Shown: positions 1 through 46,756, counted from the first letter of the stretch. The stretch is DNA of 64,000 bases from a virus (IMGVR_UViG_3300031521_000015), one strand, 5' to 3'. The notes: generated by a model not told the origin, from the letters alone. Made by a program: numbers and translations.

Positions 1-1082
1 ATTCAACTAAATATGTATTTAATGGAATTGTTGTTGAAGTGTTGGTATGACTTGTCTGTAGGGTTTTATGTTGTGAATTAGTGGTTATTTAATGTGGTTG
101 ATAATGGTTATTAATGTTTGGTTATTTGTTTTAATACATAGTATTCCTATAGGGGCGGTGCATTTACATTGTTATGTTCATTATCTGAACGCAATAGTCG
201 GACATCACATATATCGGCATACCAACTTTGGAGTGTAGCGATTGGTAAAACACGAACGTTAATCAAAATGTGTATCGGTTGTGCTTTCGTTCAGCCTTGT
301 TATACCAATACTTTAACTTATTTTTAAGTCATATATTTTACCATATTTACTACCCAATAACCCTCAAACCCACTAATACCAACCACTCACACGAACTCCA
401 CTCTATAACAGTTATATAGCACACATCGTAAAATAAATTCAAACAACCTCAACCTGTTACTATCACTACTCTAACACCAATTATTCACACCCTATTAAAA
501 CCCCGTCACGACAACTCCCTATCGTTAATTAAAATTCAAAAGATAATTAAAAAACAATTCAAAATAAAAAAGAGCCTACAGAAAAATATTCTGCAAACTC
601 AATTTGCTAATTATTTAATTATTAATATAAACTCAAAATATCAAAATCAACTACAACCACTCTCTCACAAATTCTAAACCCTATCTACACTTATACCTAA
701 AATAATCTATACCCTACTTACAATCCATCTCTAAGCTTGTCTAAATTACAAATCTATAAAAATAAATATACCAATCAAATAATTAATTCAGCAAACAAAA
801 AAGAGACTGCTCTAAATTAATTAAAATTCAAAACAGTCCCAATTGGAATAGAATGTTTACACAACTACATTATATCATTTTGTCTATATCTTAACAACAT
901 CCTATATAGGATAAGGGAGGGGGTATATTTTTAAATCCAGAATCTAAGTACCTAATATATAATACCCTACCCTATATAAAATTGGACATAAAAATAAGAC
1001 CATACTAATTAAATATGATCTCAACTTAAATACTAAAAGCCAATACATTATTACTCCTACTATATAATCTACCAACCAATAA

Positions 1083-1388
1083 TCAAATCCTAGCAATTTC
1101 AATATAACTTTTCATTAACTCCTTAACATCAGTATCACTAAGCCTATTTACAATATCAACTGTAATATCATTGAATTGGTTTACCTCATTACTCATAAAA
1201 ATTAAAACCAATACTTGTACTAAAAACATTAATTCTAATCCAACTATACCAATTAGATTCTTATTTGTTATTATCTTAATTAAACTATTATTCATTTTAT
1301 TGCTATGTTCTTTTCTTATTTCCTTTAATGTAATTTCACCTGATTTATATTTATTGTATTGGGCTATTGTCATTGTTGTTGTTTTCAT
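1083..1388 (-). CDS. Hypothetical membrane protein
   Basis: 101 aa, one hydrophobic segment, GGAGAG RBS. Confidence 0.7.
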   Translation of the reverse strand: MKTTTMTIAQYNKYKSGEITLKEIRKEHSNKMNNSLIKIITNKNLIGIVGLELMFLVQVLVLIFMSNEVNQFNDITVDIVNRLSDTDVKELMKSYIEIARI

Positions 1389-1421
1389 ATTAATATTCTC
1401 TCCATTACTTTATTATAGTAT

Positions 1422-1449
1422 ATACTATGAGTCAAACTTTTAATTTGTG
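1422..1449 (-). promoter_or_regulatory. SigK-like sporulation promoter
   Basis: Minus strand CACA-N16-CATAGTAT matches mACm-N16-CATAnnnT. Confidence 0.55.
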
Positions 1450-1511
1450 CTATATTGTTAAATTAAATTTCTAGTATCTAAATCTCATAATAATATAGTA
1501 TTAAATAACTT

Positions 1512-1832
1512 TTAACTTTCGTTTGTAATAAAGTATTCATTACTACTTTCCTTAACTAATACTATCTTAGATTTAGTTCTTTCTGTTAATAAAAAATATC
1601 CTTCTAAAATGCACACCTTATCATAGATTAATATTTGATACCAGTCTATCTTTTCCATAAGTAACCTAATAACTTGAACCTTATCATAATTATTAAAATC
1701 TTCTATATTTATGTTCTTTAATGTAAATTTAAAATCTCCAATAGTAAATTCAATATTTGTATAAAAAGATACACCTTCTTGTATCTCTTCATCTGTCATT
1801 TCTTTTATTGATTTAGTTTGTCCTTTCGCCAT
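1512..1832 (-). CDS. Hypothetical protein
   Basis: 106-aa ORF; upstream AACT-N15-CATATACT promoter-like site at 1869-1895. Confidence 0.65.
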   Translation of the reverse strand: MAKGQTKSIKEMTDEEIQEGVSFYTNIEFTIGDFKFTLKNINIEDFNNYDKVQVIRLLMEKIDWYQILIYDKVCILEGYFLLTERTKSKIVLVKESSNEYFITNES

Positions 1833-1897
1833 ATATAATACAACTCTTTATATAATTAATTACTATATAGTATATGCAATAGTATACTTAAAGTTTC

Positions 1898-2308
1898 TTA
1901 AAATAACCTTAACGCCATATCAAAAACACAAATAACTAATAATACCCATCCAACAATCTCAATTGCTTTATCAAAGATTCCACCTGTTAAGAATAATCTC
2001 AATCCATATCTCTTATTTTTTAATGGCATAAATAATGGTATTCCACTTCTAGTCATGCTATCCAATACTAAATGACTTGAATAGGACACAAACCAAATTA
2101 AGGCAATTTCTTTGCTAAATATATTTATAATTAATGTTGTAAATAACAAAAATATCAAACTATGTGTAAATGTTCTATGGAATGTCATACCAAGTTTACA
2201 ATCCAAATCTGGAGCAATTGAACCAAAAATTCCCAATAACCCTAATGGACTTGCCAGCATGGGAATACTTACCAATGTACCTATAACTAAATGTGTTTTC
2301 TTTGTCAT
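1898..2308 (-). CDS. YdjM/DUF457-type membrane metal-dependent hydrolase
   Basis: Motifs TH, GSIAPDLD, HRTFTHSL, SHLVLDSMTRSGIPL. Confidence 0.85.
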   Translation of the reverse strand: MTKKTHLVIGTLVSIPMLASPLGLLGIFGSIAPDLDCKLGMTFHRTFTHSLIFLLFTTLIINIFSKEIALIWFVSYSSHLVLDSMTRSGIPLFMPLKNKRYGLRLFLTGGIFDKAIEIVGWVLLVICVFDMALRLF

Positions 2309-2798
2309 CGTAAAATCACGCTCCTTTTGTCGCTACGCAAGCCATGCCACTCCTACCCTTCCTATCGCTTAGGCTTTTTATTAGGTTAAATAGGGCTTTA
2401 TACTTGTACTATTTGTCTAGTTATACTTTATGTCCTATAGTCTATATTTCCGTATCTATCGTATTACTGTACCTTATATCGTAGTTTACTATATAAAGCT
2501 TATTGTATTATTTCTTATCTTCTATATAGTATTCTCTATTTTACTTAAAACTATACTATGTATTTAAATTTAAACGCAAAAAATAAGACCATAACTTAAT
2601 ATGATCTTAATAATTTAAGTATTATATAATTTAAAATAGTACCTGACTAAACAACAATGCATAGTATTATAATTAATATTGTAAATAATAAATGTGCTAT
2701 TGTTTACATATCTAGTTTTCTTTCTATTTTATAGATTACAAGCATCATAAATTACTTTTTTAAGTTTATACGTATAATTTTCCTATCTCTTAAAACTA

Positions 2799-3023
2799 TT
2801 AACTTGCAAAACTAGCTAACCATTTTATAAAACTACCAACCCAACCTTCACTTATACTGAAGCTAACACTATTTAACCATGTAAAAAGGTATATTCCTGT
2901 TCCAACCCAACCACATAACACCATTAATTCTCCAAATTCTTTTTTACCCATACATTTAAATATTTTAGATGATATAAAACTAGCTGATCCAACTACTATG
3001 ACATTTGATATCATATTAAACAT
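2799..3023 (-). CDS. SpoIIIAC/AD-like two-TM small membrane protein
   Basis: TM-(IFKCMGKKEFGELMVLCG)-TM resembles the SpoIIIAC loop ILDQMGKKEYAQWVTLLG. Confidence 0.55.
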   Translation of the reverse strand: MFNMISNVIVVGSASFISSKIFKCMGKKEFGELMVLCGWVGTGIYLFTWLNSVSFSISEGWVGSFIKWLASFAS

Positions 3024-3031
3024 ATTATCAC

Positions 3032-3220
3032 CTATCCTATATGTGAAATTACTTGAATTAATTTTACTACTCCAGCAATTGCACTTATAGCTATTTGACT
3101 ATACCCTGCAATGCTTACATATTGTCCCATTTCTGTTTTCCCTAAATTGTTTAATATTTTTTCTCCTACTATTGAAGCTACTCCTAAAGATGTTAAACCT
3201 GCTATTACTACTGCGTTCAT
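3032..3220 (-). CDS. SpoIIIAC/AD-like two-TM small membrane protein
   Basis: TM-(ILNNLGKTEMGQYVSIAG)-TM; GAGGGAG RBS favours the second Met (MNAVV). Confidence 0.6.
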   Translation of the reverse strand: MNAVVIAGLTSLGVASIVGEKILNNLGKTEMGQYVSIAGYSQIAISAIAGVVKLIQVISHIG

Positions 3221-3530
3221 ATTATATCTCTCCCTCATTATTATTTATTATTTAATACAATTCTATTATTTTTCTGTCATAATCTACCTCATAAGATTCC
3301 ACACTATATAAATCATAAATTACTTCTTCCATATCTTGTTCAGTGTTTATTTTAAAATCATTACATTCATTATAATATTCTCTATAGTCTTTTATAAAAT
3401 TTTTAAAAGCAATTGTTTTCATATTTATTTCACCTCACATGTATATTATCTAAATTTAAGGTAATACTATTTATCATAAGGGATACAAGAATTTGAATAT
3501 CATCAGTTTTCAAATTCTTGTATATGAACA

Positions 3531-3836
3531 TTATTTTACGTTGGCTTTTGGAAATTGAATCACATTAGATTTAGCCTTGGACTGAGATTGGGACTTTTTA
3601 GTTTTAGTCTCAGTTTTTGCTTTAACTTTTTTAGGTTGCTCAATTTCTTTATAATTTGCACACATGTTCTTGACAACTTTCCTAAGTTGAATTGTTACAA
3701 AATGAGTAACTTTATATGCAGTTTTAAATGTTCCTATAATTAATCTTCTTACGCTTCTTGGTACAAGTAATAATGCTACATTGACAAGAACCATCATTAA
3801 TATTAATTGACCTAGTGAGTTTATTATGTATTTCAT
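3531..3836 (-). CDS. Hypothetical membrane-anchored basic protein
   Basis: AGGAGG RBS before MKYIINS; N-terminal TM, Lys-rich tail. Confidence 0.7.
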   Translation of the reverse strand: MKYIINSLGQLILMMVLVNVALLLVPRSVRRLIIGTFKTAYKVTHFVTIQLRKVVKNMCANYKEIEQPKKVKAKTETKTKKSQSQSKAKSNVIQFPKANVK

Positions 3837-4218
3837 AAGAAATACCTCCTTCTTAAAGTTTATTTCATATCTCAAAAAGTGAGATAGCTTATCGTAAGTT
3901 TACTGAAATTGATTTGCTAATTACCAATAACTTATAATATAAATATCATTACAATGATTCATCTAGTATATAGTCAACTATTTATACTGAATACCAATTA
4001 AGATTAAGTATTCAAACTTGACTTTCATTGCATATCTAGTATAAATAATCAAGCCATATACTAGATAAATATTGTAGTGATACCATATCATAAGTCTAGT
4101 AATTACATATCAATTCTTAAACTTATGATATATATCTATCTTTTGAAATTAGAATAATCTTATTCAGAATATTCTTTCTTTTGTGATATGTATTCCTCCT
4201 TCAAGGAGGGGTATTTTA

Positions 4219-4845
4219 TTAATAGCATAATACTTTTGCTATATCTTCCATATTCACATCTAATTGAGTTATTTTAAATTGAGTATCATTTTCTGCTTCA
4301 TAATCTTTATTTGTATTTTGGATTATTATAAGTCGTGGCATTGTTAGTTCTTCTTCCCCTGTTTCTTCGTTTATTGCCCTTGTTTTATCCAATATGGCAT
4401 TTATAGTATCGTTATCTTTAAATCGTTTTAAATCTATATAATCATGTCTAATTTGCATTTCTACAATTTGATAATACATGTTTCCATCAAATTTAAAAGA
4501 TACATATAGATCTGGTTTAATATTATTAAATACAGGTTCTATCTCTATTTCTTGAATATCACATCCTAAAGTTTTCAATCCACACAAATATTCTAAAACT
4601 TTTATATTATGAATAGATACTCTTTTTATTTTAGAATCATATGGTACATAAACGAGTTCGTTGGTTTCTTGATTTTTAAAAACTCTGATATATTCTCCCA
4701 TTTCAGCAATCTTTTTAAGTCTCTTTCTTGCAACATCATATGCATAACGTTTTTTTGTAAAATACATATCTGCTATATTTTTTATTGTTGCGTAGCCAAT
4801 AGTCTCTATAAAATCTATTATCAGTTTATCTCTTTCAACTATCAT
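4219..4845 (-). CDS. Replication-relaxation (Replic_Relax)-family wHTH + PD-(D/E)xK nuclease
   Basis: N-terminal ERD..II...ARKRLKK wHTH; H, IKPDLY and IVEMQ motifs; overlaps the FtsK stop (ATGA). Confidence 0.7.
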   Translation of the reverse strand: MIVERDKLIIDFIETIGYATIKNIADMYFTKKRYAYDVARKRLKKIAEMGEYIRVFKNQETNELVYVPYDSKIKRVSIHNIKVLEYLCGLKTLGCDIQEIEIEPVFNNIKPDLYVSFKFDGNMYYQIVEMQIRHDYIDLKRFKDNDTINAILDKTRAINEETGEEELTMPRLIIIQNTNKDYEAENDTQFKITQLDVNMEDIAKVLCY

Positions 4846-6332
4846 AATTTTCTTTTCCCTTCATTAATTGATTTTTTAGTATTACTAGGTAATTTAGTCT
4901 TATCAATAATAGTCATTCCTGTATAATTATCATAAGGAACACAATTAGGTATCTTAGACATGCCTTCTTCTAGCATTTCCTTTTCTGTTTTAATACGAGT
5001 GCCTACTTCTACTAACTTTCTCTTTCCTTGTTTAACTCCATCCCTATGTTGTAATTTCTCTAAGTCATCAAACAATGTTCTGTGATTAGGTTTAATAAAA
5101 GGTTTTATATATTCATATATTTTTTTATTATCAACTATTGGAACTAATCCGTATTCCCATGAATCCAAATGATAAACTATTTCTCTTCTCTTTAAATCTA
5201 ACGCCCTTTTGCTATCATCTGTGGCTATTTCACTTGACTTCTGATTTGCCTGTCTATATGATATATTTATATTTGACATTGCTTTTATGAAGCTAGGGAT
5301 ATTATCAACTGTACTTCTTTGTACACTACTATAAAGAAAGACTGAAAGTGAAGCCCCGTATTGTGCAATGGATTCGATATATCCACTTATTTCTTCTTTA
5401 AGTTTCTTTTCATCACTACCATTACCTTTTGTTTGAAAAAGTGCCATCATTTCATCAAAAGCAATCAGTATCATAGGTTCTTTTGTAAAAACCTTCTTTA
5501 ACTCATTATATTCAAAGATATTATCAACTATTGCTTTTTTCCTATAAGGTTTTATTTTTGAAATTCTATCAGGTATAATTACTTCTTTTATATATTTCAA
5601 TACGTCTCTTGTTTTCTCTAAAGTATCTGCAAAAGCTTTAGTATGAATTACATCCTCATATAGGCAGAGATCATTTTTTGCCACTTGACACAAGTACAAT
5701 TGTAAATCTTCTGGACTACAATTTACTATTAAATTAGTTATCGTACAATCTTCTCCTTTTGATTTTCCGCTTCTTGTAGTTCCTGATACTAATAGATGTG
5801 GATTTTTTCTCAAATCTCCAAATATAGCATTTCCAGCAAAATCATTGCATATAAATAGCTTATAAGGACTTTTCTCTTTAATAATTTCAAATCCCTTTTT
5901 GTCATTTTGATTAAATATAAACTTAGCATTTATCCATTTACTAGCCTTTGAATGATTAAATATAATACAACAACCTAAATTCTCTTCTATCATATCTCTT
6001 TGAGAGTCTAATTTATCAAATGTTAAAGGTGGAACTATATATATCTGTCCAGATAAACCGTAGGGTGTGAATTTGATTTTATTAAGAGCATAAGTAAAAT
6101 ACATTTTGTTATAAAGCCCTGATAAAGTCATAATATCTAACCATGTATTTTTAAATTTATTTATAACCGAAGATTTTTTAGATTCTTTTATTTCTTCTTT
6201 TTCCATTATTGCTATACATATTTTTTTGATTTGTTGTTCTAGTCGCCCTTGGCATTCTTTTTCTTCAGTGTTATCAGGTATTGTTTTAGGTTCTTTTACT
6301 TCTTCTTTTATTTCTTGTTTTAATAATTGCAT
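4842..6332 (-). CDS. FtsK/SpoIIIE-family ATPase
   Basis: PHLLVSGTTRSGKS Walker A, IAFDE Walker B, SVQR motif. Confidence 0.9.
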   Translation of the reverse strand: MQLLKQEIKEEVKEPKTIPDNTEEKECQGRLEQQIKKICIAIMEKEEIKESKKSSVINKFKNTWLDIMTLSGLYNKMYFTYALNKIKFTPYGLSGQIYIVPPLTFDKLDSQRDMIEENLGCCIIFNHSKASKWINAKFIFNQNDKKGFEIIKEKSPYKLFICNDFAGNAIFGDLRKNPHLLVSGTTRSGKSKGEDCTITNLIVNCSPEDLQLYLCQVAKNDLCLYEDVIHTKAFADTLEKTRDVLKYIKEVIIPDRISKIKPYRKKAIVDNIFEYNELKKVFTKEPMILIAFDEMMALFQTKGNGSDEKKLKEEISGYIESIAQYGASLSVFLYSSVQRSTVDNIPSFIKAMSNINISYRQANQKSSEIATDDSKRALDLKRREIVYHLDSWEYGLVPIVDNKKIYEYIKPFIKPNHRTLFDDLEKLQHRDGVKQGKRKLVEVGTRIKTEKEMLEEGMSKIPNCVPYDNYTGMTIIDKTKLPSNTKKSINEGKRKL

Positions 6333-6357
6333 ATCGTTTCCTCCTTTCTTTTAATAT

Positions 6358-6385
6358 ATACTATGATATTTCTTATTGATGTGTT
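6358..6385 (-). promoter_or_regulatory. SigK-like sporulation promoter of the FtsK operon
   Basis: Minus strand AACA-N16-CATAGTAT directly upstream of the AGGAGG RBS. Confidence 0.6.
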
Positions 6386-6399
6386 ACAACTTTTTTATT

Positions 6400-6573
6400 T
6401 TAGAATGTGGAATTTTTAGATTCTTTATTTAGTCTATCTATTTTCCTTACTCGTGATCTAACATTCATCATTTCTATTTTATTCTCTTTGCTATTACCTT
6501 TAAAACAATAAACTGTATATGCAATGGTCATAGAAGCTAACCATCCACCTGCTAATATTAATATTTGTTGCAT
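6400..6573 (-). CDS. Small membrane protein (57 aa, not in ORF track)
   Basis: AAGGAG RBS; MQQILILAGGWLASMTIAYTVYCF... Confidence 0.55.
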   Translation of the reverse strand: MQQILILAGGWLASMTIAYTVYCFKGNSKENKIEMMNVRSRVRKIDRLNKESKNSTF

Positions 6574-6776
6574 TGTCTTTAACTCCTTATTGATTTCTTA
6601 TAATATATACTATTCGATAATGATTTAAATGATACCCATTTAATGAAAATAATCATTAAATAATTACAAAAATCAGTCAAAAACATCTAAATTTACATAA
6701 TTTTTAGTAGTTTTAAATGATTATTTTGATTAAAATAGATATAAACTATAATCAAAACAAATTAATATAATAACAA

Positions 6777-6805
6777 TTGACAAGTAATATTCTTTGTGAT
6801 ATACT
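6777..6805 (+). promoter_or_regulatory. SigA promoter of endonuclease cassette 1
   Basis: TTGACA-N17-TATACT with extended TG. Confidence 0.85.
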
Positions 6806-6811
6806 AATCTT

Positions 6812-6918
6812 AAGGGATAGTTTAGTCTGATCAACTAAATGATAAAGGAGTATCAATCGCCCTTCCCTACTATATTTAGGATTGATAACAAATTAAAATA
6901 CATATTGAAAGGATTGAT
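6812..6918 (+). ncRNA. Structured leader RNA, copy 1
   Basis: P1 AGGGA/TCCCT; P2 loop TGATCA; P3 loop ATCAATC complementary to GATTGAT at 6880 and 6912. Confidence 0.7.
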
Positions 6919-8333
6919 TGTTAATGGAAGAAAAGAAAATTAAACAAGAAAAATTTAAAAAGGTGTTTTTAGATGATTTACCACATGGAGGTAAAGGTGT
7001 TAAAAATTCAAGTATAAATTGGTTGGAATCTAAAAATTATAAAGTAAGATTCATTTATAACAATGTTGAAGGTTGGGTAGAAATTACAGAAGTTAAAAGA
7101 GAAAATGGAAAAACTATGTTAGGTATAAAATATTTAGATAATGATATATTTTATATATTTACAGGTCACTTTCAACAATGTAAATTAAAAGAATTACTTG
7201 GACTAATAAACCATGATTACGTATATAAAGTTAATGAAATAATAAAAGACGAAAAAAGAAATCTATTAATATTAGAACAATTTTATATAAACGGATATAG
7301 ATATTATAAATATGAATGTTTGAATTGTAGATATATTGGTACTATAGCTGAAAGTCATTTAAAAGAAGGAAAAAATTGTTCAATTTGCTCACATCAAAAA
7401 GTTCAAAAAGAAATTAATTCAATATGGGCAACTGATAATGAATTAGTTAAATATTTTGTTAATGAAGAAGAAAGTTATAAATATCCACATTATAGTGAAC
7501 AATCTATTAAAGTAAAATGTCCTGATTGTGGGTCTATACGAAAAATATCAATAATATCTTTATATATAAATGGATTCACTTGTCCAAAGTGTGGTGATGG
7601 AATTTCTATGCCTAATAAAATGATGTTTAACGTATTAGAACAATTATTAGAATTAGACAATTTCAAAAGAGAATATTCACCAGAATGGATAGGCAGAAGA
7701 TTATATGATTTTTACTTCATATATAATGAAAAAGAATATATAATTGAAATGGATGGTGGTTTAGGTCATGGTAATATGGTATATAATGAAAATAATATGA
7801 CTTCAGAAGAATCCTTAGAAATTGATGACTACAAAGATAAAATGGCTGTTGAACATGGAATGCAAAAACCTATTCGAATTGATTGTAATCCCAGCAAATT
7901 TGATTATATAAAAAATAATATATTAATGGATGATAGACTAAATAAACTATTTGATTTGTCTAAAATTGATTGGAATAATGTTTTTCAATATACTTTAACA
8001 AATCAAATGAAAGAAGCTTGTGATTTATGGAATGATGGTAAAAATGTTAAAGAAATAAGTAATGTTTTTAAAATTAGTACAGGTGCGATTCGTAGATATT
8101 TGAATGATGGAAATAAGTTAAATTTGTGTCATTATAATGGATCTGAAAATAGTAAGAATAGTAATATAAGAAATGTAATATGTATAGAATATAATTTGAT
8201 GTTCAATTCCATAACAGAATGTGTAGAACAATTATCAAAAATGTTAAATTTAAAATTCAATATATGTAATATATCAGAGGTATGTAAAGGTAATAGAAAA
8301 ACTCATAATAAATTACACTTTGAATTTGCATAA
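6918..8333 (+). CDS. Zinc-ribbon + PD-(D/E)xK-like (YDFY..IIEMDG) + NUMOD1-like free-standing endonuclease
   Basis: Multiple CxxC; YDFYF..IIEMDGGLGH; C-terminal ISEVCKGNRKTH; paralogous to 46764, 53932 and 62821. Confidence 0.75.
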   Translation: MLMEEKKIKQEKFKKVFLDDLPHGGKGVKNSSINWLESKNYKVRFIYNNVEGWVEITEVKRENGKTMLGIKYLDNDIFYIFTGHFQQCKLKELLGLINHDYVYKVNEIIKDEKRNLLILEQFYINGYRYYKYECLNCRYIGTIAESHLKEGKNCSICSHQKVQKEINSIWATDNELVKYFVNEEESYKYPHYSEQSIKVKCPDCGSIRKISIISLYINGFTCPKCGDGISMPNKMMFNVLEQLLELDNFKREYSPEWIGRRLYDFYFIYNEKEYIIEMDGGLGHGNMVYNENNMTSEESLEIDDYKDKMAVEHGMQKPIRIDCNPSKFDYIKNNILMDDRLNKLFDLSKIDWNNVFQYTLTNQMKEACDLWNDGKNVKEISNVFKISTGAIRRYLNDGNKLNLCHYNGSENSKNSNIRNVICIEYNLMFNSITECVEQLSKMLNLKFNICNISEVCKGNRKTHNKLHFEFA

Positions 8334-8340
8334 ATTTTTA

Positions 8341-8371
8341 AAGCTTAGATTAATTTCTAGGCTTATTTTTT
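8341..8371 (+). terminator. Intrinsic terminator
   Basis: AAGCTTAGA/TCTAGGCTT stem followed by T-tract. Confidence 0.65.
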
Positions 8372-8439
8372 AATTGAAAACAAAAAAGCACCTACAATTA
8401 AAAAATGTAAGTGCTTGGACTGTTATTATTTATATTTGT

Positions 8440-9522
8440 TTAACTCCAAAAATCTGCATTCATCATATCTCGTAATTTTTGTTTTGTTGCAACTGGCTCT
8501 TCCTTGTTTGTATCTTTAGATGTGGTATTATTACTTTTATTTTTACTACCATTTTCTCTAAATTCAAATACTTTTTCTTCATCTTCTAATTCTTCGTCTT
8601 TCATATTATCATAAGCTTCTTGAAGAGTTTGTATATATTCATCTGGACTTGTTACCCCACCAAGTACCATTAAATTCTTACTGCCATAATCGGTCTTTCC
8701 CCACATTTTAGCTTTAAATAATTCTTTCCATTCATCTTTATCATATATACCCTTTTCAAATATACCTCCCATATAAGAACAATCTAAATTATTAGGCATT
8801 ACAAAAGGAGAATTATCCATACTATAATCTACTGCATCTACTAATGATTTGAATTTATCAGCCAATGGTAATATTACTTTATATTTGTTTGCTGAATTAA
8901 TCATTTTAGTATCATTAATATCTACTGCCCCTTCTTGTAATTCATATGAATCTAAAATTAATTTCATACATAGTTTGTTAAATTCGTCTTCATTTTGCAT
9001 TTTGTCATTGTCTATATATTGATAAGAATTGACTACCCCTTGAACTCTTAATTTTGTAATTTTTGAATGTAATTTAAGTGCATTTCCTATTGTTGTCTTT
9101 CCTTCTGACAATGCTGGCATAGCAACAACTAAATTAATTGCTAATTTTGAATTTAAATGCCTTAATACGTTAGTTAATGTTGTAAGTGAACCACCTCCAA
9201 ATCCGCCACCACTAGCTAGATATATTGACGCAACATCATAATTATCTGTTTTATTAGCAAGGAAATTTATAAATTTACTTCTATCTTTTGATATGCTTTC
9301 TTGTGCTACATCTTGATTCCTTCCTGTACCACCACCATTTATTGCCAAGCCATTAATAGTTGAATTATAGTGTTTTAATCTCTTCATTTCATTTATGTTA
9401 GAGTTCACAAATACACCATCGTATACCGATTGTAATACGTTTTCTGAATTATCTAATAAATCCATGAAAGTATCTAATAGTTTATTACCTGTACCACCTG
9501 TCCCAATATTTAGTACGTTCAT
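8440..9522 (-). CDS. tubZ: TubZ tubulin/FtsZ-like partition GTPase
   Basis: IGTGGTGNK, GGGTGRN and SGGGFGGGS tubulin signature; follows a wHTH gene. Confidence 0.9.
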   Translation of the reverse strand: MNVLNIGTGGTGNKLLDTFMDLLDNSENVLQSVYDGVFVNSNINEMKRLKHYNSTINGLAINGGGTGRNQDVAQESISKDRSKFINFLANKTDNYDVASIYLASGGGFGGGSLTTLTNVLRHLNSKLAINLVVAMPALSEGKTTIGNALKLHSKITKLRVQGVVNSYQYIDNDKMQNEDEFNKLCMKLILDSYELQEGAVDINDTKMINSANKYKVILPLADKFKSLVDAVDYSMDNSPFVMPNNLDCSYMGGIFEKGIYDKDEWKELFKAKMWGKTDYGSKNLMVLGGVTSPDEYIQTLQEAYDNMKDEELEDEEKVFEFRENGSKNKSNNTTSKDTNKEEPVATKQKLRDMMNADFWS

Positions 9523-9525
9523 TTC

Positions 9526-9789
9526 TTAACACATCCCCTTTAATTCTAATAATTCTTTCATTCCCTTTTCAGTAACAATATAACTTTTTGCATTTTTAAC
9601 TGATAATCCGTTTTCAATCAATCCTTGGTTGAAAAAATTCAATAATGTATTAGTTACTTTTGTTATACTCATTCCTGTTTTATCCATAATTTCTTTTTTA
9701 GTAGTACCATTTGTTTTTATATTACCTTTGGTTTTATCATTTTCACTTAAAATACTTTGAAGTATTTTAAAATCGTTTTGCGTTATCAT
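9526..9789 (-). CDS. tubR: TubR centromere-binding winged-helix protein
   Basis: 87-aa wHTH (GLIENG..YIVTEKG) immediately upstream of tubZ. Confidence 0.8.
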   Translation of the reverse strand: MITQNDFKILQSILSENDKTKGNIKTNGTTKKEIMDKTGMSITKVTNTLLNFFNQGLIENGLSVKNAKSYIVTEKGMKELLELKGMC

Positions 9790-9905
9790 TATTGTGATTT
9801 CACCTCACTTTTAGATAAGTATAACAAATATATAATTATAAATCAATAGTAATTTTAAAAATATCGTATCTGTATAGTATTTTAATTTTGTAACTGTTTT
9901 AATAT

Positions 9906-9933
9906 ACTATATGTTTAATATACAAATAGTGTT
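9906..9933 (-). promoter_or_regulatory. SigK-like promoter upstream of tubRZ
   Basis: Minus strand AACA-N16-CATATAGT. Confidence 0.5.
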
Positions 9934-10205
9934 ACTATAGTTGTTAAATACTTTATAAATAGTGTAACTATAAAAGTATAGTAGTTTATATATACTATAT
10001 GGATAGTGTATGATTAGTTTATAAATAGTGTGTAAGTAAATCTAAAGTATCTCATTTAGTAAGTAAAGTAAAGTGAAACTTAAAATATCAAAAACTTAAC
10101 TAAATATAAATTATCATAAAAACAAATATAATAATAGTGATTACTTTTTATTACTTTATGGTATACTTATAATATAATTAGAATTCATAAAGGAGTGATT
10201 TAGAT

Positions 10206-10949
10206 TTGGATAACTTTAATGATAATGACAAACATATTGTAGATACTGACTTTATAGAAGTTGACATAGAAGAGAAATTAGAAAATATGAATATAAATAA
10301 AGAACCGTTATATTACACAAGGGTTCAAACAGCTAAAATATTAGGAGAGAATGAAAGTACTATTTCATATTGGAGCAAGCAATTTCAACCATTATTAAAT
10401 TTAAAAATTATTAATATGACTAGGAAATATACAAAAATAGACATAGAAAACTTAATGTTTATTCAAAAATTACTTAGACAGGATCATTTAACTATCCAAC
10501 AAGCACTGGAGTACTGCTCAGAAAAAGGTTTTAATTCAGAATCAGGCTTAGTTGATAGTTCAAATCCATTAGCTGTTCAAACATTTATATCAGCTATGAC
10601 GGTAGAGTTTGATAAAAAGGTATCAGAAATGCAGAATACTATTATTCAGCAACAACGAGAAATGATAGAAAATTTACAGAGTATAATCCTTCAAAATAAT
10701 GAAGAACTCAAGCAAGAAATTTGTTTAACAGTAGATGAGGTGGTCACAGAAAAAATTAATGATTTTGAAAAGAATCTTATAGAAGATCAGTCACAACAAA
10801 TCCAAAATAACTTTAATAACATGAGTAATAAAATCATTAATGAAAATACTAAAATGATGAATGAGTTCAAATGTATCAAATTAGAAGAAATTCAAAAACA
10901 AGAAGAACCAAAAGGATTCTTTAGCAAAATATTCAATTTTAAGAACTAA
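10206..10949 (+). CDS. tubY: TubY-like MerR-HTH/coiled-coil partition regulator
   Basis: MerR HTH (TISYW..RKYTKIDIE), coiled coil, amphipathic tail KGFFSKIF; divergent from tubRZ. Confidence 0.75.
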   Translation: MDNFNDNDKHIVDTDFIEVDIEEKLENMNINKEPLYYTRVQTAKILGENESTISYWSKQFQPLLNLKIINMTRKYTKIDIENLMFIQKLLRQDHLTIQQALEYCSEKGFNSESGLVDSSNPLAVQTFISAMTVEFDKKVSEMQNTIIQQQREMIENLQSIILQNNEELKQEICLTVDEVVTEKINDFEKNLIEDQSQQIQNNFNNMSNKIINENTKMMNEFKCIKLEEIQKQEEPKGFFSKIFNFKN

Positions 10950-11115
10950 TAACTCAACATAAACATTAAATATAATATTAATGTCGAATATGGTATTAAT
11001 TTCTAACCATCAGACAGGTCGTAAGAATGGAGATAGGATTAAAAGAGTATTAGTTGTTGTCTTAAAATTTTAAGTCTCAGATTTGACGAGAAGGGCAATA
11101 TAAGCGATATCTAAT

Positions 11116-11469
11116 AAACAGGACTAATGTAGGACGAAAAATTCAATATTAACTCTTTACATTGCAATATTGTGATTAAAACTATTAATAATTATAGTTT
11201 CGTACTATATCCGTCCTTTTTATCTACCCCAAAAAGCCTTTTTACGTACACCTAGAGTAGCTTTCATGTACTATATCCGTCCTTTTTATAAATATAGAAC
11301 CGTTGATATCACTTAATTAGAAGTGTATGGTAATATAGAATAATTAAAGTTGTTGTAAAGCAACAACAAATATATTTATTAATAGTGGCTTAAAAAGGAT
11401 TGATTTAGTAGATAAAAAGGACTAATATAGGACGTGACAACAATAAAAGGGACTGATGTAGGACGAAAA
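11116..11469. repeat. Iteron cluster / replication origin
   Basis: Six ~23-bp copies of AAAAGGACKRATRTAGKACGAAA at ~11116, 11392, 11414, 11445 (+) and 11198, 11265 (-), upstream of rep. Confidence 0.8.
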
Positions 11470-11489
11470 TATATTGAGGTGGGCTATTT

Positions 11490-12659
11490 ATGGCATATGA
11501 ACAAATATCAATGTTAATGGATAATACAAAACAATTAAATAACGTAAACTATACTTATAAATCATCGGCACTTATAGAAAGCTCTTATGAATTAACAATT
11601 ACAGAACAAAGAATAATCGCATTAGGATGTAAAAAATTACAGCCAATATATATAGAAAACAGACTAACACCGAATGATTTACAAAAAGTTTTAGGAGCAA
11701 TGAAATTCAGTTTGATTGAAATATCTGTGTCGGAATACAGAGAAGAATATGGAATTGTTGGTAATAAAGTATATGATTCAATACAAAATGCTACTGATGA
11801 TTTATATGAAAAAGAAATAGTATATTTTGATGATAATGGTAAACTTTGCAAAAGACGATGGATGTCATCGGTTAATTTTGATAGAAAAAATGGCAACGTA
11901 CAAATAACCTTTAATATAGATCTTATTTTAGATTTATTAGTTTTTAACGGTAAATTTGTTGCTTTGTTTTTTGATATGTCGCAAGATATAAAAAGTAAAT
12001 ATTCATTTCGTATGTATGAAATATTGAAAAATAGTGCTTATTTAGGAAAAATGAAAATTTCAGTCGAAGAATTTAAATTTAAGCTAAAGATAACGGATAA
12101 GTATACTGATTTTGCAGATTTAAATAAAAAGATAATAAAGCCCAATTTAGAAGTAATAAATTTATATAGTGATATATCTCTAGAATATAAAACAATTAGG
12201 TCTGGAAGGAATGTAAAGTGGTTATGTTTTAATATAACTAAAAAAAGAAATACTACTTTTTCAGTAGATAGCAAGTTTAAAGAAAAGATACCTTCGGCAT
12301 TTAATGAAATTTCTACTGCATTAGAAAAATATAATTGTGAATTAACTTCTACTGACGCACAAACATTATTCGATACAGCTATTGAAGTGACTAAAGAGAA
12401 ATATCCAGATACAAATCCTGTTAATTACATTTTAGAAAAAATCAACTATATGGATAGCTATATTACAAAAAAACCTATAGATAATATCATTGGATTCTTA
12501 AAAAACGCAATGGAAGAAGATTATGGATTAAAATCAATTGAAGTTCAACAAAAACAAACTAAATTCAATAATTTTGAAGGAAGAGAATATAATTTTGATA
12601 AACTTGAAGCTGGGTTATTAGGATATGAAGAAGTTGCAATAGAAGATGTAACTAAATAA
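11490..12659 (+). CDS. Rep_3/RepB plasmid replication initiator
   Basis: KSSALIESSYELTITEQRII, KSKYSFRMYEIL, SVEEFK motifs. Confidence 0.9.
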   Translation: MAYEQISMLMDNTKQLNNVNYTYKSSALIESSYELTITEQRIIALGCKKLQPIYIENRLTPNDLQKVLGAMKFSLIEISVSEYREEYGIVGNKVYDSIQNATDDLYEKEIVYFDDNGKLCKRRWMSSVNFDRKNGNVQITFNIDLILDLLVFNGKFVALFFDMSQDIKSKYSFRMYEILKNSAYLGKMKISVEEFKFKLKITDKYTDFADLNKKIIKPNLEVINLYSDISLEYKTIRSGRNVKWLCFNITKKRNTTFSVDSKFKEKIPSAFNEISTALEKYNCELTSTDAQTLFDTAIEVTKEKYPDTNPVNYILEKINYMDSYITKKPIDNIIGFLKNAMEEDYGLKSIEVQQKQTKFNNFEGREYNFDKLEAGLLGYEEVAIEDVTK

Positions 12660-18741: not shown

Positions 18742-18903
18742 ATGGATATTCAAAAAATATTTAGTAAAAGAGTGGCAATCCAATTACTCAATATGGGAAA
18801 TATAATACTATACACAGAGCAGAATAAAAAGTTCCCAAAACTTAAAGTATTCTGTTTTGTGAATACTAATAAATTAAACAATGATTGGAATTTGCTAAAA
18901 TAA
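18742..18903 (+). CDS. Small DUF5659-like protein
   Basis: IFSKRVAIQLLNMGN..VFCF; similar to 27178. Confidence 0.55.
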   Translation: MDIQKIFSKRVAIQLLNMGNIILYTEQNKKFPKLKVFCFVNTNKLNNDWNLLK

Positions 18904-18944
18904 ATATACAAAATTCAAATTATAATTCAAAGGAGACAAAATAT

Positions 18945-21713
18945 ATGGCGATGAATAAACAAATTAAACTATATTCTATAAACTTAGGAATGGTTAAAAC
19001 AGGAGATGAAAAGCAATTATATTCAATGAAGTATGTAAATGATGGCTCTATGTTCAGAATTAAGCAAAATTTATCAAATAGAATAAAGAATAAACTGGAT
19101 ACTACAGAGTGGACAAGCGAATGTAATACTATTTTTAAAAAGGAATTAAAAGAAAATATATTATATAAAATTATTAATCGAGAAAATAAAAAAATAACTA
19201 AAATGATACATAACACAATTAATGATTTTAATGAAGTTAGATACGTAGATAGTAAATATTTTAAAGAAACTAATGTAATTGCATTCTTTGATAATGTGCT
19301 TACAAGAACATTAAAATTAGAAAGTGAAGAACCTACTTTAGACTTTATAGTAATTGAAGTAGGAAATACTGATATGCTAATAGTAAAACAAGTAATAGAA
19401 AAAGGATTAATTATAATAAGTAGAGAAATGGAATATGATAAGGTAATTTCAGTTGATAATAAATATAAATTCTTTACTGCTGGAGCTGGGCAAACTCGTC
19501 AAAAGAAATTTATGATGATAAAGGAAGATGTTTGGAAAACTTACGAAGAAACATTAATGTGTGGATTGACTATAGAGCAAGTCAATAAAGTAGGGGGAAT
19601 GAACATAAATAAGTTTAATGCATATTTAAGTTTGAATAATTCGGCTTCGGAAGTGGTAGAAAATTTTGATATAGATAAATGTATTGTAGTGGACGATTTT
19701 ACAGAAATAATAAATGATACAGTTGATTATATTACAAGAGATGATGAAGTAGATAACGGGATAACAGAATATACTACAAAAGGAGGCAAGAAAGTCAAAC
19801 GAAAAAATAAAAAAACTGATTGGAGTATAAAAAGAGAAAAGAAAGATATATCTTTTGATTTTATGGATGGAGCAGGAATTTGTTTAAGTAATGTATTCAA
19901 TAAAAATACTCAAATAAGATTACCTTGGTTTAAGGGCTTGTTATGTCCCATAAATTATAAAAAATACATAGAAGAAAATAAGGATTGTTCTGTAAAGGTA
20001 AAAGACATATATGGAAAAGAGTATGATATTTTAGAAGATGATATTCAAGTTATATTTACAAAAAGTCAGTTCAAAATGTGGAAATTCTATAAAGATTGGA
20101 ATGAATATAAAACATATTTCAAGAAATATGAATGCACATGTAATAAATGTATGGAAGATGAAGACAAATTAAAGAATATGAGAATAAATTATCAAATGCT
20201 TCAAACTCTTACAGAAATGAGTGATGAAGAAATAGAATATTTAACTAAAGATGTTAAATCGTTAGTTAATGAAGTACATAGTAGTAAAGATAAACAACTT
20301 GAATTTTTAGGAGCAACCCTTGAAACAAAATATAGGGATTATATGCAAGAAATAATAAGGTTGTACCCCGAGATACTAACAAGCAAGTACATAAAAAAAC
20401 AACTAAGTGATACAATTACAAGCTTTAAGAAGGAAGCAAATAGTGGAAGAATCAAACTTCATGCAAAAAGAACTTTTATAATACCAGACTTAATACATTT
20501 TATGAGTGTATTATTTGGAAATGGACAAGACTATGCACTAGGTGAAAATGAAGTATTCTTCAATACATATAAAGATAGTAAAAGACTAGCATTATTACGT
20601 TCTCCTCATTTAAGCCGAGAATGGTGCTTAAGAAACAATATAAGTAATGAAAAAACAAAGTACTTTAAAACTAATGGAATATATGTGAGTGCTAAAGATT
20701 TGGCTTATTTGGTATTAATGTTCGATGTAGATGGAGATGAAGCCTTAGTTGTTGAGGATTGTGAGGAACAAAAATGGTTATTAGATTTGGCTGAAAAACA
20801 AATGAGTGAGTTAGTTCCTTTATATTACGAAATGGGTGGGGGAGAAGGAAAAGTTATAAATCCTATAAACATATTCAACTCTTTAAAATTTGTATATGAG
20901 AAGTCCAATATAGGTAAGGTTAGCAATACATTGACAAATATATTTTCAAAAGATGATTCTGAAAAAAATATGGATAACATAAAAAAGCTATGTGCATATA
21001 ATAACTGGATAATTGATAGTGCAAAAAAATTAGAGCTTCCTAAACTGCCAAAAGATATAAAACAACTAATGAATAATAAATTATATCCATACTTTTTTCA
21101 ATTTGCAAAGAACAAAAAAAGAAATGAGTGTAGAGATATAGGAAACGGAGTAATTGATAGAATTTGTAAGAGTATTAGCAATATAAAAAATACAGATTTT
21201 GATTATTCAAAAGGGTTTGGAAGATTTAATTTAAAGAAATTATTACATAATAACAAAATAGAAATAGATTATAATGTTATTGATTTTTATTTGAAGTTAG
21301 AAAATAGTACAAGAATACTTATTAATCAATATGCAACTAAATATAAGGAGGAAGATGCAGAATTTAATTATAAAGAATTAGCTTATAATCAAGCTAAAGA
21401 AGATACCTTAAAATATTCAAAAGAGATGAATATTGATTATTTAGATTTAATAGATATGATAATTAAATATGCATTTAATGAGGACGAAATGAAACTAGCT
21501 TTTATATTTAATGTATTTGGAGCAGTAATAATCAATAATCTAAATAACAATTTAGAATTATCATTAAATGATGAGACTGTTGAAATGTGTGATTGTTGTG
21601 GCAAAAGATTTGAAAAGAAGTCAAATAATGCAAAATATTGTTATAAGTGTGCTAAAGACATAGAAAAAGAACTAACAAAGGAAAGAGTAAGAAAATTTAG
21701 AAATAAAGAATAA
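18945..21713 (+). CDS. yonO: YonO-type single-subunit phage RNA polymerase (RdRP-like fold)
   Basis: AGQTRQKK, DGAG, QIRLPWFKG, RSPH and catalytic FDVDGD; AGGAG RBS before 18945. Confidence 0.9.
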   Translation: MAMNKQIKLYSINLGMVKTGDEKQLYSMKYVNDGSMFRIKQNLSNRIKNKLDTTEWTSECNTIFKKELKENILYKIINRENKKITKMIHNTINDFNEVRYVDSKYFKETNVIAFFDNVLTRTLKLESEEPTLDFIVIEVGNTDMLIVKQVIEKGLIIISREMEYDKVISVDNKYKFFTAGAGQTRQKKFMMIKEDVWKTYEETLMCGLTIEQVNKVGGMNINKFNAYLSLNNSASEVVENFDIDKCIVVDDFTEIINDTVDYITRDDEVDNGITEYTTKGGKKVKRKNKKTDWSIKREKKDISFDFMDGAGICLSNVFNKNTQIRLPWFKGLLCPINYKKYIEENKDCSVKVKDIYGKEYDILEDDIQVIFTKSQFKMWKFYKDWNEYKTYFKKYECTCNKCMEDEDKLKNMRINYQMLQTLTEMSDEEIEYLTKDVKSLVNEVHSSKDKQLEFLGATLETKYRDYMQEIIRLYPEILTSKYIKKQLSDTITSFKKEANSGRIKLHAKRTFIIPDLIHFMSVLFGNGQDYALGENEVFFNTYKDSKRLALLRSPHLSREWCLRNNISNEKTKYFKTNGIYVSAKDLAYLVLMFDVDGDEALVVEDCEEQKWLLDLAEKQMSELVPLYYEMGGGEGKVINPINIFNSLKFVYEKSNIGKVSNTLTNIFSKDDSEKNMDNIKKLCAYNNWIIDSAKKLELPKLPKDIKQLMNNKLYPYFFQFAKNKKRNECRDIGNGVIDRICKSISNIKNTDFDYSKGFGRFNLKKLLHNNKIEIDYNVIDFYLKLENSTRILINQYATKYKEEDAEFNYKELAYNQAKEDTLKYSKEMNIDYLDLIDMIIKYAFNEDEMKLAFIFNVFGAVIINNLNNNLELSLNDETVEMCDCCGKRFEKKSNNAKYCYKCAKDIEKELTKERVRKFRNKE

Positions 21714-46652: not shown

Positions 46653-46756
46653 TGTAATGTAGGATAAATAAGGAAGTCATGAGCCTTATTGAAAAGGAGT
46701 ATTCCGAACTCCCTTCCTATATTACATATAAATCGGAAAATAAATTCAACGGAGGA
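46653..46756 (+). ncRNA. Structured leader RNA, copy 3
   Basis: 12-bp P1; P2 loop TCATGA; P3 loop TTCCGA complementary to TCGGAA (46733) and CGGA of the RBS (46750). Confidence 0.75.

Follow-up and report, generated by a model that had tools for sequence, protein, structure and literature searches.

The window, the stretch of 64,000 nucleotides (64 kb, one strand) from the virus IMGVR_UViG_3300031521_000015 that was analysed in this work, carries an accessory operon that is conserved among c-st-like phage-plasmids of clostridia. The operon is located on the minus strand beside the TubZRY partition genes, and encodes a motor ATPase, a nuclease-like protein and small membrane proteins. The best explanation of the whole, with a probability of roughly 0.4, is that this accessory operon is transcribed by SigK and processes or moves the DNA of the element at sporulation. 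Transcription by the RNA polymerase holoenzyme of SigK, a sporulation sigma factor, taken alone and judged from promoter sequences, is narrowly probable. A sequence-only reading of the same DNA had proposed a sporulation-controlled DNA-transfer module composed of a SpoIIIAC-like pair, a Replic_Relax nuclease and a SpoIIIE/FtsK ATPase, plus tubRZ.

By its genes, the window (26% GC) is an uncultured c-st/SPbeta-like Clostridium phage-plasmid. This assignment is based on the homology of TubZ, TubR and TubY to CST189, CST190 and CST188 of c-st, and on the rest of the gene content: a Rep3 initiator, TubZ, TubR, a MerR-type TubY homologue, and portal and capsid genes. Further genes encode a tape measure protein of 1911 amino acids and several homing endonucleases of the HNH type, and no near-identical DNA was present in phage or plasmid collections.

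Composition and conservation of the operon

The composition of the operon is secure. In minus-strand order it comprises orf57, the gene for the FtsK-like ATPase (ftsK), the genes for a 208- and a 101-amino acid protein, orf56, two genes encoding hairpin proteins with two transmembrane (TM) segments, and a terminator-like hairpin with a T-run at the operon end (2576-2608, read from the sequence). The first gene, orf57 (6400-6573, 57 amino acids), encodes a protein with an N-terminal hydrophobic helix. The 101-amino acid protein (3531-3836, with its ATG at 3836 behind GGAGG) has one TM helix and a lysine-rich, basic tail, and orf56 (3252-3422, 56 amino acids) encodes a small acidic soluble protein.

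The relatives compared were 13 fetched loci, about 11 of them distinct (L005, L007 and L012 are near-duplicates of L004 and L006): c-st (L002), Clostridium sp. genomes (L004, L005), large metagenomic and IMG/VR contigs (L006, L007, L011-L015), Clostridium botulinum pNPD1_1 (L016), Clostridium kluyveri pCKL555A (L017) and Clostridium tetani (L018). A survey of the module and its promoters in relatives, suggested by the sequence-only reading, gave synteny in the 13 loci and a promoter before ftsK or the operon in eight distinct relatives. The order small open reading frame (ORF), ATPase, nuclease, ~100-amino acid protein and hairpin pair recurred in L002, L004-L007 and L011-L016. The position of orf57 was occupied by a 56-57-amino acid ORF in all relatives and that of the 101-amino acid protein by a 92-107-amino acid ORF; orf56 was also present in L006, L007 and others. 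The SpoIIIAC-like pair was located 3' of ftsK in 11 of the 13 loci (about 9 of the 11 distinct ones) and in the window; in C. tetani (L018) and pCKL555A (L017) the ATPase and nuclease were present and the hairpins absent.

The closest known arrangement is that of c-st, in which CST192-CST197, beside tubZ/tubR/tubY (CST188-190), have the same gene order as the window operon: a small ORF, an FtsK-like ATPase (31% identity), a 205-amino acid winged-helix nuclease, a SpoIIIAC-like 62-amino acid protein and a second hairpin. CST192 is also preceded by a SigK-like site that scores 17.9 bits and shares the -10 block. Unlike in the window, the c-st operon is divergent from tubRZ, has one upstream promoter instead of two, and carries a second SigK-like site 3' of the nuclease gene. 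This second site (L002 8234-8264, 17.9 bits) and its equivalent in pNPD1_1 (L016 7028-7058, 16.7 bits) immediately follow the nuclease gene and precede the genes leading to the SpoIIIAC-like pair; there is no counterpart in the window. The c-st module genes are annotated as hypothetical or FtsK-like only, and no published function was found for them.

The ATPase (4842-6332, 496 amino acids) is a member of the FtsK/SpoIIIE family. PF01580 matched it at 48.3 bits (cut-off 24), its Walker A and B motifs read GTTRSGKS and FDE, and its best solved relatives among PDB chains were FtsK (2ius, E=2.6e-13) and the pCW3 coupling protein TcpA (6o1w, E=6e-9), all of which bear out the earlier call of an FtsK-like motor. 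Pfam gave no Ftsk_gamma match, and the AlphaFold 2 (AF2) model (predicted local distance difference test score, pLDDT, 46) was too poor to judge the presence of a C-terminal gamma winged helix. The protein is a soluble FtsK-type hexameric motor, translationally coupled to the 208-amino acid protein, whose gene (4219-4845) starts within an overlap with the ftsK stop.

The 208-amino acid protein had no Pfam, NCBIfam or PADLOC match and failed the gathering score of PF13814 (Replic_Relax); among its relatives, 2 of 20 matched this family (E ~0.02), and c-st CST194 did so with E=0.01. Its AF2 model (pLDDT 92) nevertheless predicted a winged helix plus a PD-(D/E)xK fold, with Bax1, EndoMS and FokI as fold matches, and E103, P111, D112 and E129-x-Q131 were invariant in 20 homologues. 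In hhalign comparisons the protein scored 99% against CST194, and its family profile aligned end to end over 149 columns (76.7% probability, E=2e-5) with a Geobacillus-phage Replic_Relax alignment of 26 relatives, mostly annotated as PF13814. In the latter alignment the acidic motifs were in register, PD standing opposite D and ExQ opposite ExD. Against PDB sequences the family profile gave only noise. The modelled fold and the profile match point to a remote relative of the Replic_Relax/MOBC proteins, PF13814 being the MOBC relaxase class (PMC5357655). The term "Replic_Relax nuclease" of the earlier reading is therefore fair as a description of resemblance: fold and profile-profile match favour it, but the protein has no Pfam match of its own and stays below the family threshold.

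The same pairing of genes is known from Bacillus and Geobacillus temperate phages (gamma/Fah, BtCS33, phiCM3, vB_GthS_PK5.1, RBClin15), in which a small ORF, a soluble FtsK-like ATPase and an overlapping ~205-amino acid protein are arranged as in the window. The phage ~205-amino acid proteins pass PF13814, whereas the 208-amino acid protein does not, and the fetched Geobacillus locus, unlike the window, has neither SpoIIIAC-like genes nor a SigK-like promoter.

A resemblance to MOBC elements was also evident, since these likewise combine a winged-helix plus PD-(D/E)xK relaxase (PF13814) with an adjacent gene for a P-loop DNA translocase. The operon might on this basis be a mobilisation module, in which a MOBC-type relaxase and a TcpA/FtsK-type coupling protein transfer the phage-plasmid through a conjugation pore supplied by another element in the same cell. 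MOBC relaxases do stand beside coupling proteins in mobilisable elements (PMC5357655), the ATPase matches TcpA, and many of its plasmid matches are typed as mobilisable. However, MOBC relaxases are paired with VirD4-type rather than TcpA-type coupling proteins (PMC5357655), the closest plasmids are typed as non-mobilisable, and the window differs from MOBC elements in the sub-threshold score of its nuclease-like protein, which has ExQ instead of ExD/ExK, in an ATPase without membrane anchor, and in the absence of type IV secretion system genes. Mobilisation would, moreover, leave the sporulation-type promoters and the SpoIIIAC-like genes without a reason, and is considered improbable.

The two tandem two-TM proteins with a GKKE/GKTE loop noticed in the sequence-only reading were present: hairpin 1 (3032-3220, 62 amino acids) with the loop LGKTEM, and hairpin 2 (2799-3023, 74 amino acids) with the loop MGKKEF. 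The region 2799-3220 was searched with hidden Markov models (HMMs). Hairpin 1 had no Pfam match and matched TIGR02848 (SpoIIIAC) over the full length, with E=1.3e-3 and 19.1 bits against a cut-off of 56.65. Hairpin 2 had no HMM match of its own in Pfam or NCBIfam; it was detected by the hairpin-1 family profile (E=5e-5 and E=6e-4) and is a distant paralogue of hairpin 1. An exhaustive profile search collected ~50 clusters (at 50% identity) of ~60-amino acid proteins of this hairpin family; 14 of 43 representatives matched PF06686 (best 8e-5), and no other family recurred. The nearest clusters in the Atlas (language-model) comparison were SpoIIIAC, with scores of 0.92 for hairpin 1 and 0.86 for hairpin 2. 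Three tandem hairpin copies (E=5e-4 to 3e-3) were located downstream of the related ATPase of C. baratii pCBJ, and one of them is named SpoIIIAC/AD family in the RefSeq annotation.

Like SpoIIIAC and SpoIIIAD, the hairpins are proteins of ~60-70 amino acids with two TM segments and a G-K-x-E loop, encoded as a tandem pair; unlike them, they belong to a phage operon and form a family of their own. No other spoIIIA genes lay near the hairpin genes, whose setting is the phage operon and not spoIIIAA-AH. Since scores were far below the curated cut-offs, the hairpins are taken as divergent members of the SpoIIIAC/AD family, related at the family level, and not as spoIIIA orthologues. The predicted "SpoIIIAC-like pair" thus holds as family-level similarity, with both proteins below the curated cut-offs and hairpin 2 without a match.

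Such proteins could interfere with sporulation of the host by inserting into, or poisoning, the SpoIIIA-SpoIIQ channel and so delaying or blocking spore maturation, the ATPase and nuclease serving another role. The family-level resemblance to SpoIIIAC would suit this, and mother-cell-type promoters would place the hairpins where SpoIIIA proteins are made. Nevertheless, the similarity is remote and a temperate plasmid-prophage gains little by killing spores, which makes interference very improbable.

SigK-like sites upstream of the operon

The three minus-strand sites of the pattern MACA-N16-CATANNNT reported in the sequence-only reading (1422-1449, 6358-6385 and 9906-9933) were all recovered as exact matches, together with a fourth (10005-10032). 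The whole window contained 7 matches against 2.77 expected, a number reached in 2 of 100 shuffles, and the near match at 1869-1895 reads AC-N16-CATATACT. As this pattern had been chosen after the sites were seen, an independent weight matrix was built from 21 C. difficile SigK promoters with mapped transcription start sites (Saujet 2013, PMC3789822 Table S7). The C. difficile SigK consensus is GTAACA, a spacer of 15-16 nucleotides and CATAgTATA, and the AC of the -35 box is the feature separating SigK from SigE promoters (PMC3789822).

Scored over both strands of the 64 kb, the matrix ranked first the site before ftsK (6357-6387, minus strand, GTAACA-N16-CATAGTATA, 20.4 bits), which is identical to the C. 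difficile consensus at all 15 positions, and second a site 116 nucleotides before tubR (9905-9935, minus strand, GTAACA-N16-CATATAGTA, 19.2 bits). The expected score of a true site was 14.2 bits, and 25 Markov randomisations gave maxima of 14.5-19.4. Three further minus-strand sites had background-level scores and were located 33-36 nucleotides before start codons: GTATCA-N15-AATAGTATA before orf57 (6606-6635, 11.6 bits, 33 nucleotides 5' of the ATG), GAAACT-N15-CATATACTA before orf106 (1868-1897, 13.8 bits, 36 nucleotides 5' of the ATG) and AGCACA-N16-CATAGTATA before orf101 (1421-1451, 12.7 bits). Sites of at least 11.5 bits located 20-130 nucleotides upstream of a start were found for 5 of the 12 cluster genes and for 1 of the 40 other genes of the window (Fisher p=0.0016). 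The promoter geometry was uniform, the -10 box ending 25-36 nucleotides before the ATG, and the conserved block was absent from all plus-strand (lytic) operons of the window.

The promoter before ftsK was also conserved in the relatives: both boxes were invariant in six loci in which the proteins were only 50-77% identical, and a promoter before ftsK or the operon was conserved in the eight distinct relatives, c-st included. The best SigK site of the locus lay upstream of ftsK or before the small ORF preceding it in 8 of 9 further loci (6 distinct). Its score was 20.4 bits in L006, L011 and L013 and 17.9 in L004, L005 and c-st; the exception was L014, in which this site ranked second (16.8 bits). 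The site before orf57 was conserved in L004, L006, L011, L013, L014 and c-st, and shares its -10 block with the other promoters. The same block recurred before the operon in pNPD1_1 and in the C. tetani plasmid. The orf101 promoter and gene start were conserved in L014; the overlapping TTGACT was not.

Other sigma factors were considered for these sites. SigE and the forespore sigma factors SigF and SigG fitted the -35 boxes worse (judged by eye against published consensus sequences). Promoters of the YonO type, for which the literature gives no definition, were also rejected as the source of the block, which is absent from the plus-strand late genes. No phage sigma factor was detected among the subset of window ORFs scanned against Pfam.

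Several observations weigh against a SigK-driven function in sporulation. Three of the five SigK-like sites score at background level, no such site stands directly before the SpoIIIAC-like genes of the window, and nothing comparable lies upstream of the related ATPase genes of pCBJ and pCKL555A. A reading of the promoters as mediocre SigA sites (GTAACA-N18-TAGTAT) is also possible. The conserved block runs ~10 nucleotides past the -10 box and is near-palindromic (TAGTATATACTA, repeated at three promoters), so that part of its conservation may reflect an operator or binding site, perhaps for the operon's own winged-helix protein. No TM or hydrophobic segment was found across the 496 amino acids of the ATPase; the multi-span septum anchor of FtsK and SpoIIIE is missing, and for want of this N-terminal anchor the protein is not a SpoIIIE orthologue. 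The FtsK gene of the analogous Bacillus phage Fah belongs to the delayed class, and the early and late genes of Fah are reported to depend on SigA RNA polymerase (PMC4113786). At tubR, the -35 box of the SigK-like site is inside one of three ACACTATTTRTA iterons, and the site was not found in L004, L011 or L014. The SigK reading is weakened for tubRZ, because this site is unique to the window, overlaps iterons and is farther from the gene than a conserved SigA-like promoter with TG (TTGATT-N17-TATACT, 9818-9846, minus strand; TTGATT-N17-TATAAT at the same place in L004). The promoter claim of the sequence-only reading consequently came out stronger for the ftsK operon, with its near-consensus site conserved as far as c-st, and weaker for tubRZ. 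The idea that the tubR sites are mere by-products of the iterons was retained only in part: although the -35 box lies within an iteron, only the site before ftsK matches SigK better in the window.

The operon could instead be a vegetative or lytic module for the replication and processing of DNA, expressed early or delayed-early under SigA or a phage factor, its likeness to SigK promoters being an AT-rich coincidence or an operator. The same overlapping gene pair occurs in the same order in the Geobacillus and Bacillus temperate phages, the fetched Geobacillus locus lacks a SigK-like site before ftsK, the Fah FtsK gene is delayed in a phage reported to depend on SigA RNA polymerase, the phage of the window apparently has a YonO-like polymerase of its own, and the conserved block is near-palindromic. 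On the other side, the invariant C of CATA and the missing TTG of the -35 box are unlike SigA, the 20.4 bits exceed all 25 randomisations, the GTAACA -35 box is conserved across the family at a fixed spacing of 15-16 nucleotides, and the lytic operons of the window lack the block. Such a replication module is rather unlikely.

A possible role at sporulation

Because SigK is reported to act both early and late in several clostridial species (PMC10747680), an operon under its control could conceivably be expressed either when sporulation begins or late, in the mother cell. SigK-RNA polymerase would transcribe the operon as the cell commits to sporulation. The winged-helix nuclease would then recognise a site on the DNA of the element, for which the TAGTATATACTA block is a candidate, and would load the ATPase, which the small TM proteins would keep at the membrane. 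Finally, the plasmid-prophage DNA would be processed or moved, either to be captured in the spore or to be replicated and released from a mother cell that is doomed. By analogy with pairs of relaxase and coupling protein and with gp31.1-gp32 of phage SPP1, it is probable that the nuclease-like protein marks the DNA of the element and that this DNA is moved or remodelled by the ATPase at the membrane. In SPP1, a soluble FtsK/VirB4/TrwB-like ATPase and small membrane proteins (gp31.1/gp31.2/gp32) form a proposed, non-essential translocon (PMC6316719). Unlike in the window, the SPP1 ATPase has 836 amino acids and no nuclease partner, and its expression is early lytic.

A more specific form of this scheme, also drawn by analogy, would be a SigK-timed, conjugation-like machine at the mother cell-forespore interface that delivers a copy of the element into the forespore, via or beside the SpoIIIA-SpoIIQ channel. 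The relaxase-like nuclease and the FtsK motor would dock there through the SpoIIIAC/AD mimics and the small membrane proteins. Both the delivery and this manner of docking are distinctly improbable. If true, forespore delivery would explain how phages such as c-st reach spores, phages of this type being low-copy and unstably lysogenic.

Prophage genes behind mother-cell sigma promoters are already described for the SPbeta sprB, skin and yin elements (PMC10747680; PMC5499854). The promoters of those elements drive recombination directionality factors for excision, whereas those of the window would drive a motor, nuclease and membrane protein operon on an extrachromosomal element. The phage pair of ATPase and Replic_Relax protein, TubZRY and the control of prophage excision factors by sporulation sigma factors are thus known. 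A literature search found neither a conserved SigK-type promoter on this operon nor its linkage to SpoIIIAC/AD-like genes in c-st-like phage-plasmids. So far as this search goes, the promoter of sporulation type and the SpoIIIAC-like genes are both new.

FtsK/SpoIIIE homologues in phages of spore-formers have been known for several years, a 2014 review already discussing them, and their role in DNA translocation or sporulation has so far been speculation in reviews (PMC4113786, PMC11526630). The conserved, near-consensus SigK-type promoter and the SpoIIIAC/AD-like genes provide a testable hypothesis, namely that plasmid-prophages run a DNA-handling programme in sporulation. This bears on how such elements, some of them with toxin genes (c-st is botulinum-toxin-converting), persist through spores or are lost.

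Partition locus and neighbouring genes

The tubRZ assignment of the sequence-only reading was confirmed: tubZ (8440-9522, minus strand) matched PF00091 with 39.5 bits against a cut-off of 33 and c-st TubZ with E=1e-12, and tubR (9526-9789, minus strand) was similar to c-st TubR (E=4e-4). The TubY homologue (10206-10949, plus strand), divergent from tubR, has a MerR-type helix-turn-helix (PF13411) and a coiled coil, and is 28% identical to CST188 (E=7e-19). The three exact ACACTATTTRTA repeats (9921-10031) are a candidate TubR centromere (tubC/tubS); the relatives carry different repeats at this position.

The module adjoins TubZRY in the window, c-st, pNPD1_1, L004, L011 and L014; in pCBJ (L001 1-813) and pCKL555A (L017 2874-3785) the FtsK-like gene is near a ParM/StbA actin-type partition gene and not TubZ. 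The motor thus recurs beside a segregation filament, be it of one type or the other. Such linkage would suit an accessory to plasmid maintenance, with motor and nuclease resolving or untangling plasmid multimers during growth, or acting with TubZ or ParM to position the DNA. Adjacency alone is nonetheless weak, the membrane proteins and the promoter type would be left unexplained, and the SigK-like site of tubR is not conserved; a maintenance function of this kind is regarded as quite unlikely.

An HNH homing-endonuclease paralogue (phrog_4538; 6918-8333, plus strand) is located between tubZ and the FtsK operon, with other copies at 46689, 53932 and 62821. Its promoter (6777-6805, plus strand, TTGACA-N17-TATACT with TG) has the best SigA consensus of the region. 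In L004, L011 and L014 tubZ and the FtsK operon are directly adjacent, without an HNH gene between them. Just upstream of the Rep3 gene, three copies of 28-nucleotide direct repeats with matching inverted copies (11113-11469) are probable origin iterons.

Downstream of the hairpin genes and the terminator, the minus strand encodes a YdjM-family membrane metal-hydrolase (1898-2308, PF04307 E=2e-22), followed by orf106 and by orf101 (1083-1388), which encodes a protein with one TM segment. A YdjM-type hydrolase also follows the FtsK module in L004, L005 and C. kluyveri pCKL555A (L017 6736-7131), and may belong to the same functional unit. Its gene is preceded in the window by a GC-rich leader of ~90 nucleotides (2309-2400, minus strand), conserved in L004 and L005, for which RNAalifold gave only a weak stem and Rfam no match. 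A second terminator-like hairpin (~1000-1040, minus strand) is located 3' of orf101 and has nearly the same sequence as that at 2576-2608: AAGATCAT...ATGGTCTT plus a T-run.

On the plus strand, an ORF of 942 amino acids (18885-21713) without a Pfam match showed 34% identity, across 98% of its length, to a protein found in SPbeta, phi3T and Perkons, and 35% identity to a Clostridium phage D-1873 protein. The homologue in Psychrobacillus phage Perkons is annotated as an RNA-dependent RNA polymerase. The ORF was read as YonO-like, so that the phage apparently has a single-subunit RNA polymerase of its own. A defence-system reading was rejected, the PADLOC matches being weak and of the generic P-loop kind. 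No tRNAs were detected, and an Rfam scan of 1-12000 gave no family.

The first part of the window (1-1083) consists of ~1 kb without convincing ORFs. Its two strands differ strongly in composition, the minus strand being rich in G, and searches gave neither a similar sequence in the phage collection nor a tRNA or Rfam match. Since the homologous module of c-st lies directly against the terminal repeat, this part of the window could be a genome-end or packaging region.

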